A DNA stretch of 17,515 nt from a virus. Lineage: Duplodnaviria; Heunggongvirae; Uroviricota; Caudoviricetes. A model generated the notes under the pieces. It saw only the letters and a list, made by a program, of their open reading frames with translations. It did no database searches and was not told the origin of the DNA. The position numbers and the translations under genes are program-made. Positions 1 to 12,640 of this stretch are shown here, in pieces (within the stretch, counting starts at the first letter, position 1; every line of letters begins with the position of its first letter). Where the stretch lies: the IMG/VR virus record IMGVR_UViG_2554235124_000002; one strand, 5' to 3'.

Positions 1-2467
<2,467 letters not shown>

Positions 2468-2524: not shown

Positions 2525-3198
2525 TCAACGACCAATCACCACAACCTGACCACCGTCCCCCTCGTCTGCCGTGCTGATCTCCTGAGAAACCACCCGCGAC
2601 CCCACGCGCATTTCACCGTACAGAACGGGCAGAACATTGCCCTGGGCAACCATGTTATCCAGTGAGGAGAAATAGGTGTTCTGCTTACCGTTATCCGTAC
2701 TCTGCTGTACGTGGGAGTCCTAGCTTTCGGTGCCAACATCTGCGCCACACCACCAAGCACCATACTGGCACCGAGAGAAAACAGGATACCGGTCATACCA
2801 CCGGCCCCAATGGCTGCCCCCCATGCTGCAAGGGTGGCTCCGGCAGTAAAGAATGATCCGGCAATGGCGGCAGCCCCCAGAACAATCTGGAATACGCCCC
2901 CTGACTTGGCCCCGGCGACTCTGGGAACAATATGAATCACAGCGCCGTCAGGCAGAACCTCATGTAACTGCGCCGTCAACCCGGACGTGCTGACGTCCCG
3001 CCCGGCAATCCGTACCTGATACCAGCCGTCGCTCAGTTTCTGACGAAACGCCGGGAGCTGTGTGGCAAGCGCCCGGATGGCTTCAGCCCCCGTTTTCACA
3101 CGAAGGTCGATGCGGCGGCCAAATCGTTGCAAATCCCCGTAAAGGCAGATGCGTGCCATGCCCGGTGACGCCAGAGGGAGTGTGTGCGTCGCTGCCAT
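2525..3198 (-). pseudogene. I: Tail tip assembly protein I, reading frame disrupted by a frameshift near 2711-2712
   Basis: Track ORF 2536..3198 matches lambda gpI through ...VAQMLAPKARTP (about 162 aa), then reads a non-homologous tail. The lambda-like C-terminus DNGKQNTYFSSLDNMVAQGNV...ISTADEGDGGQVVVIGR-stop is intact in a different frame and ends at 2525, exactly 60 nt before J. The frame switch is about 2 nt after the Pro codon at 2713-2715. Confidence 0.75.
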
Positions 3199-3840
3199 TT
3201 GTCGGTATACCTCTCTCGTTTGCTCAGTTGTTCAGGAATATGGTGCAGCAGCTCGCCATCACCACAGTAAATGGCGGCATGATTCGGCACCGATGAACCA
3301 AAACAGCACAGCAGCACATCGCCCGGTTGTGCTGATGACAACGGCACCTGATACAGCCCTGTGGCCTCCAGATTATCCAGATAGAGATTCTGACCGTGAC
3401 GCCACCAGTCATCCCCGCGATGAAAATCCGGCATCTCAATCCCCGCCAGATGATAAGCATCCCGGAACAGCGTGTAACAGTCCGTCACCCCGTGCTCAAA
3501 GCGCCGCCCGGTAAGATGCGGCACACAGCGGAACTTATGAATCGTCACCCCGGCAGACCAGCCACCACGGCAAATCACTCTGCACCTGCAGCCGCCGGTC
3601 AGCCTCACTCAGCCAGGGCAGACCACCGGGGTGGCTGTGGACCAGCGCCACAATCTCACCCTGCATTTCTGCCCGCAGCCAGTCCTCCGGCGACATACGG
3701 AAATACGCCTCCGGCTCACCGGAGATATTCACGCAGGGAAAATATCTTTCCCCCTCCGGCGTGCTCACCACGAAGCCACACGACTCCGCTGGCGCACATC
3801 GCCGGGCGTGCGCCAGAATCGCTGATTCTGTCTGTGTCAT
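3096..3840 (-). pseudogene. K: Tail tip assembly protein K (N-terminal MPN/JAMM-like domain plus C-terminal NlpC/P60-like domain), split by a +1 frameshift near 3546
   Basis: Track ORF 3535..3840 (101 aa) is the lambda K N-terminal part, with the HSHPGG...SEAD JAMM-like motif, and ends ...PWWLVCRG then DDS-stop. Track ORF 3096..3608 in another frame carries the rest of K from TIHKFRCVPHL... to ...TFV. Read directly: sense CTG GTC TGC CGG GGT GAC GAT TCA TAA, where one extra nucleotide separates the CRG and TIHKF frames. Start is 5 nt after the L stop; the 3' end overlaps the I start by 103 nt, as in lambda. Confidence 0.75.
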
Positions 3841-3845
3841 GGGAT

Positions 3846-4544
3846 TTACTGCGAAAGTTTGTTAATGGAAAGGAAGCCGCCAAAGTTGCCGACGTTATTG
3901 CGGAACTTACAACCGCTCAGGCATTTGCTGCATTTATCCTTCGTGATATCGGACGTCGGCTGATCATATTCATCCGCGACAGCCGGACCGCGATAACCGC
4001 ACTCATCACCGCGATAGGTCCAGGTGCAGGTGTTGGCCAGCATGATACGTCCCGGAAAAACAGCGCCATCCGTTTCCGTCGGCGTGGACAGTACAAAAGA
4101 GGCACTCACCGCGCTCAGTTCGCTGCACTGCTCAATGCGCCAGCGGCTGATCACCTCCTGCTCCGGATCGGCATAACTGTTTCCGTTGACGAAGTTCACC
4201 GCATCCAGAAAACGGGCGTAAACCTTACGCCGGACCACCGTTCCGCCGACCAGACTCTGCAGATCTTCCGCCATCCCGGTGACCATACCGTACAGGTTAG
4301 AAACCGTCAGCGTGGGGCGCGTACTGGTGCCTTTGCCATTCAGTTCAAAACCACTCCCCTGAATGGGATACGGCTGATACTGTCGCCCCTGCCAGGTGAC
4401 CGGCTCACCTTTTTCGTTCTGCTCATTACAGAAAAAATAACGTTCTCCACCGACCTCTGTCAGATCGATTTCCCAGAGCACCACGCTGGCCGACTGCTCC
4501 GCACGGGTGCATTCATTCAGTGTTTCCTGCCGGATATCCTGCAT
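3846..4544 (-). CDS. L: Tail tip assembly protein L (C-terminal cysteine cluster)
   Basis: Track ORF of 232 aa, same length as lambda gpL; sequence MQDIRQETLNECTRAEQSASVVLWEIDLTEVGGERYFF... Start overlaps the M stop by 1 nt, as in lambda. Confidence 0.93.
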   Translation of the reverse strand: MQDIRQETLNECTRAEQSASVVLWEIDLTEVGGERYFFCNEQNEKGEPVTWQGRQYQPYPIQGSGFELNGKGTSTRPTLTVSNLYGMVTGMAEDLQSLVGGTVVRRKVYARFLDAVNFVNGNSYADPEQEVISRWRIEQCSELSAVSASFVLSTPTETDGAVFPGRIMLANTCTWTYRGDECGYRGPAVADEYDQPTSDITKDKCSKCLSGCKFRNNVGNFGGFLSINKLSQ

Positions 4545-4873
4545 CAGTTCACCACCTGTTCAAACTCTGCGCTGAACTCAACACGCAACATACTGACCCG
4601 CGACGACCATTTTGCGCAGGTCACCTTTATCTGCCGCCACCCATAAGGCGGCGTCCACAGAAAGGACTTCCAGCCCCCGTGCTCAGCCAGAAACGACTCC
4701 AGCACCGTGGCCTCCTCACGGGAGACAGAAAGCGTCACGCTGTACGTTTTCAGGTCAGCATTCAGCCCGGCAGGCGCACGCTGAGAATAGCCATCACCAA
4801 AGCGCACCTCCCTGACAGAAGGAACCGAAGCCACATCCATACCGGGTTTCACTTTCCAGCGGAAGGTCTTCAT
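4544..4873 (-). CDS. M: Tail tip protein M
   Basis: Track ORF of 109 aa, MKTFRWKVKPGMDVASVPSVREVRFGDGYSQRAPAGLNADLKTYSVTL..., matching lambda gpM in length and sequence; 4 nt overlap with the H stop. Confidence 0.93.
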   Translation of the reverse strand: MKTFRWKVKPGMDVASVPSVREVRFGDGYSQRAPAGLNADLKTYSVTLSVSREEATVLESFLAEHGGWKSFLWTPPYGWRQIKVTCAKWSSRVSMLRVEFSAEFEQVVN

Positions 4874-7431
4874 CGTCCACCTCCGGAGAACAGACCACCA
4901 TCACGCATCTGTGCCTGAATTTCATCACGGGCACCCTTGCGGGCCATGTCATACACCGCCTTCAGAGCAGCCGGACCTATCTGCCCGTTCGTGCCGTCGT
5001 TGTTAATCACCACATGGTTATTCTGCTCAAACGTCCCGGACGCCTGCGACCGGCTGTCTGCCATGCTGCCCGGTGTACCGACATAACCGCCGGTGGCATA
5101 GCCGCGCATCAGCCGGTAAAGATTCCCCACGCCAATCCGGCTGGTTGCCTCCTTTGTGAAGACAAATTCACCACGGTGAACAATCCCCGCTGGCTCATAT
5201 TTGCCGCCGGTTCCCGTAAATCCTCCGGTTGCAAAATGGAATTTCGCCGCAGCGGCCTGAATGGCTGTACCGCCTGACGCGGATGCGCCGCCACCAACAG
5301 CCCCGCCAATGGCGCTGCCGATACTCCCGACAATCCCCACCATTGCCTGCTTAAGCAGAATTTCTGTCATCATGGACAGCACGGAACGGGTGAAGCTGCG
5401 CCAGTTCTGCTCACTGCCGGTCAGCATCGCCGCCATATTCTGCGCAATACCATCAAAGGTCTGCGCGGCTGCACTTTTAACCTGCGACATACTGTCCGTG
5501 GCGCTCTCTTCCCACTCACTCCAGCCGGACTTCAGGCCTGCCATCCAGCTCCCGCGAAGCTGGTCTTCAGCCGCCCAGGTCTTTTTCTGCTCTGACATGA
5601 CGTTATTCAGCGCCAGAGGATTATCGCCATACTGTTCCTTCAGGCGCTGTTCCGTGGCTTCCCGCGCTGCCTGCCGGTCAGTCAGCCCCCGGCTTTTCGC
5701 ATCAATGGCGGCCCGTTTTGCCCGTTGCTGCTGTGCGAATTTATCCGCCTGCTGCGCCAGCGCGTTCAGGCGCTCCTGATACGTAACCTTGTCGCCAAGT
5801 GCAGCCAGCTGGCGTTTGTACTCCAGCGTCTCATCTTTATGCGCCAGCAGGGATTTCTCCTGTGCAGACAGCTGGCGACGTTGCGCCGCCTCCTCCAGTA
5901 CCGCGAACTGACTCTCCGCCTTCCACAAATCCCGGCGCTGCTGGCTGATTTTCTCATTTGCTCCGGCATGCTTCTCCAGCGTCCGGAGTTCAGCCTGAAG
6001 CGTCAGCAGGGCAGCATGAGCACTGTCTTCCTGACGATCGCCCGCAGACACCTTCACGCCGGACTGCTTCGGCTTTTTCAGCGTCGCTTCATAGTCCTTT
6101 TTCGCCGCCGCCATCAGCGTGTTGTAATCTGCCTGCAGAATTTTCCCGTCCTTCAGGGCCTTATTCAGTTCTTCCTGACGGGCGGCATATTTCTCCAGCG
6201 GCGTCTGCAGCCGTTCGTAAGCCTTCTGCGCCTCTTCGGTATATTTCAGCCGTGACGCTTCAGTATCGCTCTGCTGCTGCGCATTTGTGTCCTGTTGACT
6301 CTGCTGTTCAGCCTTCTTTCGCGCGGCTTCAAGCGCAAGACGGGCCTTTTCACGATCATCCCAGTAACGCGCCCGCGCTTCATCGTTAACAAAATAATCA
6401 TCCTTGCGCAGACTCCAGATGTCGTCCGCTTTCTTAAACGCAGCCTCTGCCTTAATCAGCATCTCCTGCGCGGTATCAGGACGACCAATATCCAGCACCG
6501 CATCCCACATGGATTTGAATGCCCGCGCAGTCCTGTCTGCCCAGGTCTCCAGCGTACCCATGTTCTCTTTCAGGCGGCGGGTCTGGTCATCAAACCCTTT
6601 CGTCGCGGCCTCGTTCGCCGCCTGCAATGCCCCGGCTTCATCGCCGGAACGCTGCAACTGAGCAACATACGCAATCTGCTCCGCCGTCACGTTATGGAAC
6701 TGGCGTGCCATCGCCGTCAACCCCGACGTCGGGTCTGTGGTCAGCTTCCCGAAGGCTTCAGCGACCTTGTCCACCTCCACACCGGATGCAGAGGAGAAAC
6801 GCGCCACACTCTGGCTGATGGACGCAATCTGAGCCTCACCGCTTACCCCCGCCTTAACCAGTGCGCTGAGTGACTCGCTGGTCTGGTTAAACGTCAGCCC
6901 AGCCGCCTGCCCGGCTCTGGACAGGACCAGCATACGATCTGCCGTCAGACCCGACTGATTGCCGGAAAGGACCAGCGTTTTGTTGAAATCGGACAGGGTT
7001 GAGTTGCCCTGATACCAGGCATACGCCAGCGCACCGGTCGCCACCGCCAGCGAGGTGGCCCCGACCATCGGCAGGGTGATCGCACCGGCAAGCCCCCTGA
7101 ACATGGGGATCATCCCGCCGAAGGAGTCCTTCACCTGACCACCCTGTTGCAGCAGGATCAGCCACGGACTTTGCCCGCCTGCAAGCTGCGTGGCCACGTC
7201 GGTGAACTGTGCAGGCAGCATACGCATGGCGGCTTTATACTGCCCGACGGAAATCCCCGCTTTCTGTGCAGCCAGCGCCTGCCGGCTCAGCGACTGTTCA
7301 ACGACTGCCGCTGTTTTTTTCGCATCACTTTCCGTACCGGAAAAATGACGCCTGACTCTGGCCATCTGCTCGTCAAATCTGGCCGCATCCAGACTCAAAT
7401 CAACGACCAGATCGCCTACCGGTTCAGCCAT
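4870..7431 (-). CDS. H: Tail tape measure protein H
   Basis: Track ORF of 853 aa, identical in length to lambda gpH; coiled-coil-rich centre and Gly-rich C-terminal region; start overlaps the T stop by 8 nt, as in lambda. Confidence 0.95.
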   Translation of the reverse strand: MAEPVGDLVVDLSLDAARFDEQMARVRRHFSGTESDAKKTAAVVEQSLSRQALAAQKAGISVGQYKAAMRMLPAQFTDVATQLAGGQSPWLILLQQGGQVKDSFGGMIPMFRGLAGAITLPMVGATSLAVATGALAYAWYQGNSTLSDFNKTLVLSGNQSGLTADRMLVLSRAGQAAGLTFNQTSESLSALVKAGVSGEAQIASISQSVARFSSASGVEVDKVAEAFGKLTTDPTSGLTAMARQFHNVTAEQIAYVAQLQRSGDEAGALQAANEAATKGFDDQTRRLKENMGTLETWADRTARAFKSMWDAVLDIGRPDTAQEMLIKAEAAFKKADDIWSLRKDDYFVNDEARARYWDDREKARLALEAARKKAEQQSQQDTNAQQQSDTEASRLKYTEEAQKAYERLQTPLEKYAARQEELNKALKDGKILQADYNTLMAAAKKDYEATLKKPKQSGVKVSAGDRQEDSAHAALLTLQAELRTLEKHAGANEKISQQRRDLWKAESQFAVLEEAAQRRQLSAQEKSLLAHKDETLEYKRQLAALGDKVTYQERLNALAQQADKFAQQQRAKRAAIDAKSRGLTDRQAAREATEQRLKEQYGDNPLALNNVMSEQKKTWAAEDQLRGSWMAGLKSGWSEWEESATDSMSQVKSAAAQTFDGIAQNMAAMLTGSEQNWRSFTRSVLSMMTEILLKQAMVGIVGSIGSAIGGAVGGGASASGGTAIQAAAAKFHFATGGFTGTGGKYEPAGIVHRGEFVFTKEATSRIGVGNLYRLMRGYATGGYVGTPGSMADSRSQASGTFEQNNHVVINNDGTNGQIGPAALKAVYDMARKGARDEIQAQMRDGGLFSGGGR

Positions 7432-8262
7432 ACCTGACTCCTCCTGCGATCCCTTCTGATACTGTCATCAGCATTACGTCATCCTCCGTCATGTCCGCCA
7501 CATCCGGGGAAGCGGGGATAACTTCATTCCCGTCCGGGCCAAAGCGGACACCTCCGGCAAGCCCTGCCGCTTTCTGCATCAGCACATCATCTTCAGGCTC
7601 TTCATCAGCCTCGCGCCGGTTCAGCAGACTGAAATCCAGCGGATGCATATCCGGATCGCTGAAAAACAGGCTGAGTACGGTGTACGTCAGCCCGGAAAAG
7701 TGCATATCCAGCAGAACATCATGAAAATAATGGGTACTGTAAAAGCGGTGCCAGTCGGCATACTCCGTGGATGACATCCCGGCAAGCATGGCGCGCCAGT
7801 CGGGTCGCCCCATCTCACGCGCCAGTTTCAGGGCAAAACTCAGCTCACCGTCGAACACTTTCCCGCAGAAACAGGCTCTGCAGGCCCGGCGTCCTCTGCC
7901 TGTTCGGGGGCATTATTCACCACAAACTCATACATACCGGACAGCCGGTACACCACGTTTTCAGCATGAGAAATTGCCTCTGTGGGCCAGGTGGTAAGCA
8001 CTTCCTGCTCAATCTGTTTAACGGCTTCATTCATGGAAGGCAGCTGCGTCTTCTTCGGATGGTTATGCCACAGGGACATCGCCACCAGAAACGCGCCGGT
8101 TCTGATGACGTCTTCCACAGTAAACTGCCGGTTGCTGTCGGACCCCGCCGGTTCTGCCTGCCGTTTCATCAGGGCAAGATGCTCAATACGCTGCAGGGCT
8201 GACAGTTCAGAAAGCGTGACGGTCACACCGTTATATTCAAATGATTCGGTTTTCAGGAACAT
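7424..8262 (-). CDS. T: Tail assembly chaperone G-T fusion, made by programmed -1 ribosomal frameshift from G into the T frame
   Basis: T-frame ORF 7424..7858 (144 aa, no independent start context) overlaps the 3' end of G; slippery heptamer G GGA AAG sits at the junction. Classic lambda G/G-T arrangement. Confidence 0.85.
7840..8262 (-). CDS. G: Tail assembly chaperone G
   Basis: Track ORF of 140 aa, MFLKTESFEYNGVTVTLSELSALQRIEHLALMKRQAEP..., ending ...AGKCSTVS; same length as lambda gpG; 15 nt gap after V, as in lambda. Confidence 0.95.
   Translation of the reverse strand: MFLKTESFEYNGVTVTLSELSALQRIEHLALMKRQAEPAGSDSNRQFTVEDVIRTGAFLVAMSLWHNHPKKTQLPSMNEAVKQIEQEVLTTWPTEAISHAENVVYRLSGMYEFVVNNAPEQAEDAGPAEPVSAGKCSTVS
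7858..7864 (-). other. Programmed -1 frameshift slippery heptamer GGGAAAG (G GGA AAG in the G frame)
   Basis: Plus 7856-7864 is cactttccc, so the sense strand reads GGGAAAGTG. In the G frame it is GCG GGA AAG TGT..., in the -1 frame GGG AAA GTG TTC GAC... = the T-frame sequence (track shows MFDGELSF). Confidence 0.85.
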
Positions 8263-10809: not shown

Positions 10810-11835
10810 TTACGCCAGTTGAACGGACACGAACTCATCAGGATCAGCCAGCAGCATCAGCGGTGCTGACTGAATCATGGTGAACTCACGCGCCGGATCG
10901 CCGGAGGTCACCCAGTTTTTCGGATAACGGGCAGACGCATTAATACCCTCACGCAATGCATCCGCATCCTGAATACAGCCATAGGTGCGCAGACCGCGAG
11001 CATGAGTGTTACCCAGCACCATCGTGTTGTCCGGCAGGAAGTTCTTTTTGACGCCGTTTTCCACGTACTGTCCGGAATACACGACGATGGCCACATCGCC
11101 ATACATTCCCTTATAAGACACCGCTTTGCCCAAGTCTTTTACCGCTGTCTCCAGCTCGGAATGAGAGCCGCGACGGGTATCCAGCTTCTCCCTGACGGCT
11201 TTGAAGGAACGGAACAGCGCCCAGCCTTTCGGATCAAACACGATGATATTCACCACACCGCTGGCGTTCAGCGCGTAGGCTTCGATATCGTCGGTCGGAT
11301 CATACGTGGACTTGTCACGCTTGCTCCACTCCGTGCCGCCGGACTGCGTGATGTTATTCGCCGCACTGCGGCCCATATCCACCTCAACCGGATCGAAGGC
11401 TTCACCAGTCATGGTATATTTGCCCTTAAGCACGGCAGAAACGGCCTGCATCTCTTCGACCTGAGCAATCGCCAGATCTTCATCAAGCATATTCTGCAGA
11501 ATAATACGACGACGACGGTAAGCCGGGTCAGCCAGATTCTGCGGATCTTCATCCGGCAGGCGACGCAGGGTCATCTGCGGATTCACCTCATGCTTGGGTT
11601 TGACATAACCCGGCGTAAATTCAGAGGTGGAGCCGCCACGGGAGCGGATAACCTCACCGGAAACAATCGGCGAAACGTACAGCGCCATGTTTACCAGTCC
11701 CGGAATTTGTGAGAGATAGACTTTCTCCGTAGTGAAAGGATAGCTCTCACGGAAAAACAGACGCAGAAACAGCGGATCAAACTTAAAGTGATGCTCAGTC
11801 GACGCCAGCAACTCGGCGGTTGTATACACAGACAT
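10810..11835 (-). CDS. E: Major capsid protein E
   Basis: Track ORF 10810..11862 (350 aa); lambda gpE homology begins at the internal Met MSVYTTAELLASTEHHFKFDPLFLRLFFRESYPFTTEKVYLSQIPGLVNMALYVSP..., giving 341 aa as in lambda and a 55 nt D-E gap as in lambda; ATG read at 11833-11835. Confidence 0.92.
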   Translation of the reverse strand: MSVYTTAELLASTEHHFKFDPLFLRLFFRESYPFTTEKVYLSQIPGLVNMALYVSPIVSGEVIRSRGGSTSEFTPGYVKPKHEVNPQMTLRRLPDEDPQNLADPAYRRRRIILQNMLDEDLAIAQVEEMQAVSAVLKGKYTMTGEAFDPVEVDMGRSAANNITQSGGTEWSKRDKSTYDPTDDIEAYALNASGVVNIIVFDPKGWALFRSFKAVREKLDTRRGSHSELETAVKDLGKAVSYKGMYGDVAIVVYSGQYVENGVKKNFLPDNTMVLGNTHARGLRTYGCIQDADALREGINASARYPKNWVTSGDPAREFTMIQSAPLMLLADPDEFVSVQLA

Positions 11836-11848
11836 AAAAAAATCCCAT

Positions 11849-11870
11849 AAAAAAAGCCGCACAGGCGGCC
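11849..11870 (-). terminator. Terminator-like hairpin in the D-E gap: sense GCCGC-CUGU-GCGGC followed by U7
   Basis: Plus 11849-11869 is aaaaaaa gccgc acag gcggc. On the sense (minus) strand this is a 5 bp all-GC stem with a 4 nt loop, followed directly by seven U, then AUGGGA, a second U7, and the E AUG. Confidence 0.45.
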
Positions 11871-11890
11871 TTTAGTGATGAAGGGGAAAA

Positions 11891-12223
11891 TTAAACGATG
11901 CTGATTGCCGTTCCGGCAAACGCGGTCCGTTTTTTAGTCTCGTCGCTGGCAGCCTCCGGCCAGAGCACATCCTCATAACGGAACGAGCCGGACTTGTAGA
12001 ACGTCAGTGTGGTGCTGGTCTGGTCAGCAGCAACCGCAAGAATGCCAACGGCAGCACCGTCGGTGGTGCCATCCCACACAACCAGCTTACGGGTAGAGCC
12101 ATCCAGCATCAGCGGGGTCATTGCAGGCGCTTTCGCACTCAATCCGCCAGGCGCAATTGCGGTATGAGCCGGATCACTGTTACCCAGCGGCTGGTAATGG
12201 GTAAACGCTTCTTTGCTCGCCAT
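11891..12223 (-). CDS. D: Capsid decoration protein D
   Basis: Track ORF 11891..12232 (113 aa); lambda gpD homology (110 aa) starts at the internal Met [43 protein letters not shown]..., which places the start 9 nt after the C stop, as in lambda. Confidence 0.88.
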
Positions 12224-12232
12224 AACTGCCAC

Positions 12233-12640
12233 TTATACCCGTAAAGCTTCAGGTGTATTAAGCAAATCGTTAACGGCATCAGATGCCAGGTTACCTGCAG
12301 CCAGCGGTGCCGGTGCACCCTGCATCAGACGATCCAGCGCAGTGTCACTGCGCGCCTGTGCACTCTGTGGTGCTGCAGCCAGAATGCGGCGGGCCGTTTC
12401 CACGGTCATTCCGGGGGTTTCTGCCAGAACGCGCGCCTGTTCTTCGCGTCCGTGAGCCTCCTCACAGTTGAGGATCCCCATAATGCGGCTGTTTTCTGCC
12501 GCAACCGCTGCGGTGATCTGCGCGTTCACGTCCGGCTGCGCCGCGCTGGCGTTTTCGCCCTCCGTCGCTGGCACCACGTCAGTAACGTCAGCCTGCGAAG
12601 CAGTGGCTGAAACAGTTGTTGATTGAGTCTCTTTGGTCAT
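12233..12640 (-). CDS. Nu3: Scaffolding protein Nu3, in-frame nested gene within the 3' part of C (internal start)
   Basis: In-frame internal ATG at 12638-12640 (MTKETQSTTVSATASQADVTDVVPATEGENASAAQPD...) preceded by a strong AGGAGG at 12645-12650 with a 4 nt spacer. Product is about 135 aa, acidic and Ala/Gln-rich, typical of a disordered scaffold. Lambda encodes Nu3 nested in C in this way. Exact start is uncertain; in-frame Mets further upstream (about 12832 and 12850) lack a good Shine-Dalgarno. Confidence 0.55.
   Translation of the reverse strand: MTKETQSTTVSATASQADVTDVVPATEGENASAAQPDVNAQITAAVAAENSRIMGILNCEEAHGREEQARVLAETPGMTVETARRILAAAPQSAQARSDTALDRLMQGAPAPLAAGNLASDAVNDLLNTPEALRV

Follow-up and report, generated by a model that had tools for sequence, protein, structure and literature searches.

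A Composite Frameshift in Tail Gene I of a Lambda-Type Prophage Contig Probably Reflects the Merging of Two Natural Alleles

Introduction

The closest described counterpart of the protein considered here is gpI of phage lambda, the tail tip assembly or "insertion" protein. In the lambda virion, residues 135–223 of gpI form a trimeric plug that seals the lumen of the tail tip; this plug holds the C terminus of gpH and binds gpJ via β-sheet augmentation (PMC10721106). The product of the neighboring gene, gpK, is undetected in virions and is thought to act as an assembly factor (PMC10721106).

We analyzed a 17,515-bp stretch of DNA (the window), all of whose genes lie on the minus strand and in which gene I is out of frame as deposited. 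A first-pass annotation made from the sequence had described a frameshift with an intact, displaced C terminus and had left it open whether the lesion was recent or an error. Below we show that the frameshift is composite, that a lesion of the same kind is present in the neighboring gene K, and that both can be composed from natural alleles. Neither the composite nature of the I lesion nor the lesion in K had been noticed in the first pass.

Results

Gene I lies between K, which encodes the JAB and NlpC/P60 domains, and J. As called, its ORF (2536..3198, minus strand) encodes 220 amino acids. Codons 1–162 (2713..3198, minus strand) are in the original frame; they encode the PF06805 domain and a hydrophobic Gly/Ala-rich segment, extend to ...APKARTP, and terminate in ...VAQMLAPKARTP; the Pro codon, CCC, occupies 2715–2713. 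This part differs from HK630 gpI at a single residue (T81V). The Lambda_tail_I domain (PF06805) was found at residues 14–97 of the product (E = 1.1e-27), and a Pfam search with the 220-aa product gave no match past residue 97. The domain, the place between K and J, and the match to lambda over codons 1–162 bear out the earlier assignment of the ORF to tail gene I.

Beyond codon 162, the deposited frame continues through 58 codons with no relation to gpI, beginning with TYSRVRITVSRTPISPHW..., and ends at a stop codon at 2538–2536 (2536..2712, minus strand). The 3′ part of I is displaced to the −1 frame (2525..2698, minus strand), where it reads TDNGKQ...VVIGR followed by a stop; in lambda, the larger share of the gpI plug domain is encoded here. 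Its last 57 residues are identical, 57 of 57, to HK630/lambda gpI. The −1 frame is open from 2719, being preceded by TAG at 2722–2720; it reads DSHVQQS-TDNGKQNTYFSSLDNMVAQGNV...GGQVVVIGR (given alternatively as ...STDNGKQNTYFSSLDNMVAQGNV...GGQVVVIGR), with the stop codon at 2527–2525. The ATG of J is located at 2464–2462, leaving a lambda-like 60-nt spacer between I and J; only the first 821 codons of J (1..2464, minus strand) precede the contig end that cuts the gene. The non-homologous tail to 2536, the intact out-of-frame C terminus ending at 2525, and the 60-nt distance to J had all been read correctly in the first pass. As deposited, no single frame joins the C-terminal plug domain (lambda residues ~135–223) to the N-terminal part.

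The displaced C terminus differs from its relatives in DNA at synonymous sites, while its protein sequence is that of lambda gpI. We therefore conclude that there has been no decay since the I "lesion" arose. Consistently, I contains no substitutions private to this contig, and the only private columns in the K-I region are the two lesion columns.

Nucleotide alignment with 2G7b and HK630 placed the frame break in I at 2702–2712, within a variable patch, and defined it as a net gain of 2 nt. The first-pass annotation had placed the switch 2 nt after the Pro codon at 2713–2715. The position was right, but a single event does not describe the break, which is a net +2 nt within a 27-nt patch and not one simple indel. 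We measured the spacer from GGCACCGAAAGC to GATAACGG in 126 other loci, drawn from IMG/VR, phages, and E. coli; it is 25 nt long in 125 of them and 27 nt long in the window, where it reads TAGGACTCCCACGTACAGCAGAGTACG (2696..2722, minus strand). The same 125 loci carry I in frame, which speaks against related phages having I as two ORFs, the finding that the first pass had named as able to overturn its reading.

The linker of gpI that follows ...APKA is hypervariable in sequence and fixed in length. We counted at least 15 DNA alleles (encoding RTQTT, RIQTT, TAAST, TATST, TTTST, and others), all of them 25 nt long. The sole other out-of-frame I allele in the IMG/VR sample (L028, IMGVR_UViG_2531839454_000013) has a 23-nt patch that corresponds to an A-type allele (see below) minus two T's; with 135 private columns over 1.7 kb, the locus looks like a low-quality assembly.

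Two natural alleles account for the patch in the window. Allele A, TAGAACTCCCCGTACACAGACAACG, represents class A (...ACTCCC-CGTACA-CAGACAACG), which encodes RTQTT, and allele B, CAGGACGCCCACGGCAGCAAGTACA, represents class B (...ACGCCCACG-GCAGCA-AGTACA), which encodes TAAST. The two classes are separated by an edit distance of 11 with compensating 1-nt gaps, compared with ~13 mismatches in an ungapped hand count. Every column of the window patch agrees with either A or B; the substitution states alternate between the two alleles, and all four A/B gap columns are filled. The window patch gains A2712 and G2705 over allele A, and T2709 and G2702 over allele B. The lesion is thus a composite of two separate extra bases and three hybrid substitutions in a hypervariable patch. 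Since the patch lies at an edit distance of 5 from A and 6 from B, and A and B are 11 apart, it sits on a shortest edit path between them. When 20,000 random derivatives of A carrying two insertions and three substitutions were generated, none fell on such a path (0/20,000). Once either of these pairs of extra bases is deleted, I again encodes a 223-aa product, which, depending on the pair, is identical to HK630 gpI at 220 or 218 of 223 positions.

A similar lesion was found in gene K. The 5′ ORF of K (3535..3840, minus strand; 101 aa) encodes the JAB/MPN domain (PF14464, E = 2e-14) and is truncated after ...LVCRG by a +1 break, and the NlpC/P60 domain (PF00877, E = 4e-13) is encoded in a displaced frame by the 3′ part of the gene (3096..3543, minus strand). 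The lesion, CCGGGG[T]GA[C]GATT (3544..3547, minus strand), is a merge of CCGGGG-GACGATT (G T I) and CCGGGGTGA-GATT (G E I), both of which are natural alleles. The in-frame forms at 3544–3547 are GGGGGACG and GGGGTGAG, and the lesion form is GGGGTGACG. Among the 43 possible 1-nt insertions into the first K allele, one is also a single edit from the second allele, and it is the insertion seen in the window (1/43). K returns to its full 247 aa if either T3547 or C3544 is taken out. In neither gene do the inserted bases simply lengthen a homopolymer; T3547 interrupts the G-run of K. Indels, whether real or due to sequencing, recur at that G-run: in the finished genomes A13 and PNUSAE008512, K has G6 in place of G5 at the same position and is labeled "frameshifted" by PGAP.

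The window is the entire draft WGS contig APNX01000047.1 of E. coli assembly GCA_000387785.2, and an exact-protein look-up of the 220-aa I product returned this record as the sole match; the RefSeq names of the other proteins point to E. coli as the organism. Our literature search with the accession retrieved nothing relevant. The contig holds the conserved lambda-type head-tail module alone, nu1 and A through J, in reverse complement, and its ends cut within nu1 on one side and after codon 821 of J on the other. These ends coincide with the points where lambdoid prophages cease to resemble one another, as would be expected of a repeat node in an assembly graph. Among complete E. coli genomes with at least one match to the whole window, the median number of matching places was three. 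The closest phage is 2G7b (98.5% identity), and the closest finished E. coli prophage is 98.1% identical.

Alignment of the whole 17.5 kb with 2G7b and HK630 revealed two frame-breaking indels in coding DNA, those in the adjacent genes K and I, less than 840 nt apart; the remaining ~17 genes are intact. Two other features of the window deserve mention. Between the end of C/Nu3 and the start of D (~12236–12260, minus strand), the window differs in length from 2G7b and HK630 by 12 nt and includes a divergent stretch; here it follows the allele of the type found in locus L036, which looks like a natural alternative at a module boundary. At the end of G, the motif GGGAAAG (7858–7864, minus strand) is found where G (7840..8262) overlaps T (7424..7858), a known feature.

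We searched for the lesions elsewhere. No 28-mer across the I patch is shared with any of 5,426 complete E. coli genomes, in which 11,480 places match a K-I-J query; the K lesion was likewise not found in these genomes. Neither half of the I patch was found in IMG/VR, and a pattern covering the window patch and a related hybrid had no match in IMG/VR or JGI metagenomes. A degenerate 16-mer pattern gave only chance matches in unrelated taxa when run against IMG/VR and GTDB genomes. No natural in-frame allele was found one event away from the window patch, and the best matches to its "repaired" versions were 64/67 and 63/67.

The 90%-identity cluster of the 220-aa I product has three further members. 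One, P0004 (ENA; a 988-kb contig of another assembly), implies allele A with the same two extra bases (+2); the corresponding patch was not found in the 5,426 complete E. coli genomes. The second, P0003 (ENA; a 1.55-Mb contig of another assembly), implies a different A/B hybrid that is 4 nt longer, and the third, P0002 (NCTC), simply lacks one nucleotide at AAAG. In a collection of 5.8 billion proteins, most other frameshifted I products break elsewhere, for example at DNMVA|Q. Among the DNA collections searched, only this contig has the two lesions, although the P0004 and P0003 proteins imply A/B hybrids too. Judged from these protein sequences, hybrids of other lengths would fit a recurrent mixing process better than one inherited mutation.

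We also asked whether the contig as a whole is a mixture. In three-way phasing with 2G7b and L036, allelic states alternated almost at random, non-synonymous sites included. By a best-two-parent test and by the rates of switching at synonymous versus non-synonymous sites, the window resembles a site-wise mixture. It had the most novel-combination 21-mers in two panels, and the window also stood out in the K-I panel when nearest-neighbor distance and greedy exact cover were examined (31 segments, against a median of 7, and two private columns). At the start of E, an 81-nt stretch (11780–11860) shares no 28-mer with any of the 5,426 complete E. coli genomes, and a 30-mer taken from it was not found in IMG/VR or JGI metagenomes. 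Yet this alternation is also seen in the V, L, Z, U, FII, and FI proteins, exact copies of which are encoded on independent contigs and in metagenomes. The alternation therefore appears to be natural and to reflect sparse sampling of a haplotype from a highly recombining gene pool, and we do not use these tests as evidence that the contig is a site-wise chimera of 2G7b-like and L036-like haplotypes. The number of contigs with the exact protein was at least 1,000 each for FII and Z, 380 for U, eight for FI, and three others each for L and V. The exact proteins of E and D (together 10810–12223), G (7840–8262), and M (4544–4873) were found on no other contig in a search of ~15 billion proteins.

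Discussion

Both lesions are exact merges of natural alleles, and dropping the extra bases gives back full-length gpI and gpK. The I frameshift is present in the deposited sequence and is probably absent from the bacterium. We consider it likely that the frameshift is a consensus or polishing artefact, which arose when reads of two lambdoid prophages resident in one strain were combined. The first-pass annotation's hedge between a recent lesion and an error is upheld, and the merge of alleles, the draft status of the contig, and the absence of the lesion from all finished genomes searched favor error.

Such an artefact could arise as follows. A typical E. coli genome has about three copies of the head-tail module, and at two places the natural alleles of K and I differ by tight clusters of substitutions, which an aligner turns into 1-nt gaps that compensate each other. 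The two prophage alleles, present together in the reads or in a polishing pile-up, would then be merged column by column, and if a base won over a gap in every gap column, I would gain 2 nt and K would gain 1 nt. On this account the strain should hold a second prophage with the other alleles, and the merge would be computational. Consensus calling per column would be expected to yield independent choices of this kind and to keep inserted bases.

We favor an artefact because the record is a draft, the module is repeated, there are two like lesions, neither gene shows decay, and no finished genome searched has either lesion. The case rests on the two lesions themselves, contig-wide alternation having been withdrawn. 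Merge-type lesions occur more than once in the contig, at 2696–2722 (I) and 3544–3547 (K), where the alleles differ by clustered changes. Some observations point the other way. The rest of the contig gives no usable sign of mixing and does not look like a global chimera. The P0004 protein would also be explicable, from its sequence, by a real, rare, segregating allele. Finally, real K frameshifts exist in finished prophages, such as the change from G5 to G6 in A13 and PNUSAE008512.

In the alternative that survives best, the hybrid alleles exist in the bacterium. Two lambdoid prophages in the same host could have undergone ectopic recombination or gene conversion that left a heteroduplex across K-I, the mismatches and 1-nt loops of which were resolved piecemeal; K and I would then be frameshifted, and the tail tip would not be built. 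Because the lesions are composed of two natural alleles, the second allele must have been present, and several such modules are usual in E. coli genomes. The distance of less than 840 nt between the lesions is what one heteroduplex tract predicts, and P0004 and P0003, on large contigs of other assemblies, imply similar hybrids. Against this stands the number of events required: ~9 independent switches in 27 nt, with all six loops resolved to insertion. Homologous exchange of the ordinary kind preserves length, and known mismatch repair co-repairs close markers a few bases apart. We know of no biological process whose outcome is the independent repair of ~9 differences within 27 nt. In addition, no such hybrid was present at the 11,480 K-I-J matching places of the 5,426 finished genomes, and I and K have no further signs of decay. 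We consider real hybrid alleles unlikely.

A related proposal is that the "compensated-frameshift" allele classes of K and I are built-in incompatibility sites that inactivate recombinant tail modules. Exchange of DNA across such sites between two prophages of one host would yield an out-of-frame mixture. We regard this as quite doubtful. If it were true, such sites would help to domesticate prophages and would also act as a barrier that separates lambdoid lineages, and the P0004 and P0003 hybrids would be independent occurrences.

Ordinary pseudogenization would require spontaneous small insertions in a decaying prophage, two in I and one in K. Frameshifted prophage tail genes are common; K of A13 and PNUSAE008512 is frameshifted at the same G-run, and the protein collection contains other frameshifted I products. 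Yet the inserted bases together with the neighboring substitutions reproduce a second natural allele, an outcome seen in none of the 20,000 simulated derivatives for I and in one of 43 insertions for K, and the insertions are not simple homopolymer extensions (T3547 lies inside the G-run of K). The other ~17 genes are intact, and there are no signs of relaxed selection downstream of the lesion (no private changes, and a C-terminal 57 aa equal to that of lambda gpI). The same lesion was not found in independent finished assemblies; only the draft/ENA relatives in the protein cluster imply similar hybrids. Independent pseudogenization is thus highly improbable.

Programmed recoding by a −1 ribosomal shift, as in G/GT, or a genuine two-ORF I is barely credible and was rejected: although the −1 frame opens at 2719, just ahead of the homology switch, and this module has a programmed −1 shift for G/GT at GGGAAAG (7864–7858), I contains no heptamer of the form X XXY YYZ (the frame overlap is AGGACTCCCACGTACAGCAGAGTACGG), I is in a single frame in 125 of 126 other loci and in all of the closest phages, the displaced part has no start codon before M182 and no sign of stand-alone translation, and a break at residue 162 would split the gpI plug domain (residues 135–223).

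With a consensus or polishing artefact as the likely origin, the frameshift is nothing biologically novel, and the I and K "pseudogenes" of this record should not be taken as evidence for a defective prophage or for a two-ORF I. Were the lesion real, a prophage lacking the gpI plug domain and an intact gpK could not assemble its tail tip, would make no infectious tails, and would be an ordinary defective prophage. The signature described here is a lesion that falls exactly midway along the edit path from one natural in-frame allele to another and has every gap column filled; it offers a cheap, read-free diagnostic of consensus errors in repeated prophage modules.

The I locus can be compared with several known systems. 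With gpI of lambda, HK630, 2G7b, and Perceval it shares its position between K and J, the 60-nt spacer to J, and the hydrophobic segment GILFSLGASMVLGGVA; after removal of two bases its product is identical to HK630 gpI at 220 of 223 positions, with an identical C-terminal 57 aa. It differs from these lambda-type proteins in that the frame breaks past residue 162, in the plug domain, and in that the linker patch is 27 rather than 25 nt long. The −1 frameshift of lambda G/GT belongs to the same module and involves the same −1 frame relation, but I has no slippery heptamer and its two-frame layout is not conserved in relatives. The stf frameshift of laboratory lambda, which is real and fixed, likewise splits a tail gene and leaves both halves recognizable (PMC10721106). 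In contrast to the composite hybrid in I, stf carries a simple 1-nt change inherited by all descendants, whereas the DNA of the I lesion was found in this contig only, with two protein-cluster relatives implying similar patches. A further likeness is to the errors that consensus calling or polishing introduces where repeats of draft bacterial assemblies are collapsed or cross-mapped: in both cases lesions occur only at clustered differences between paralogous alleles, alleles are merged column by column, finished genomes lack the lesion, and the contig consists of a repeated prophage module alone. Compared with such errors, the rest of this contig does not have the look of a global chimera.
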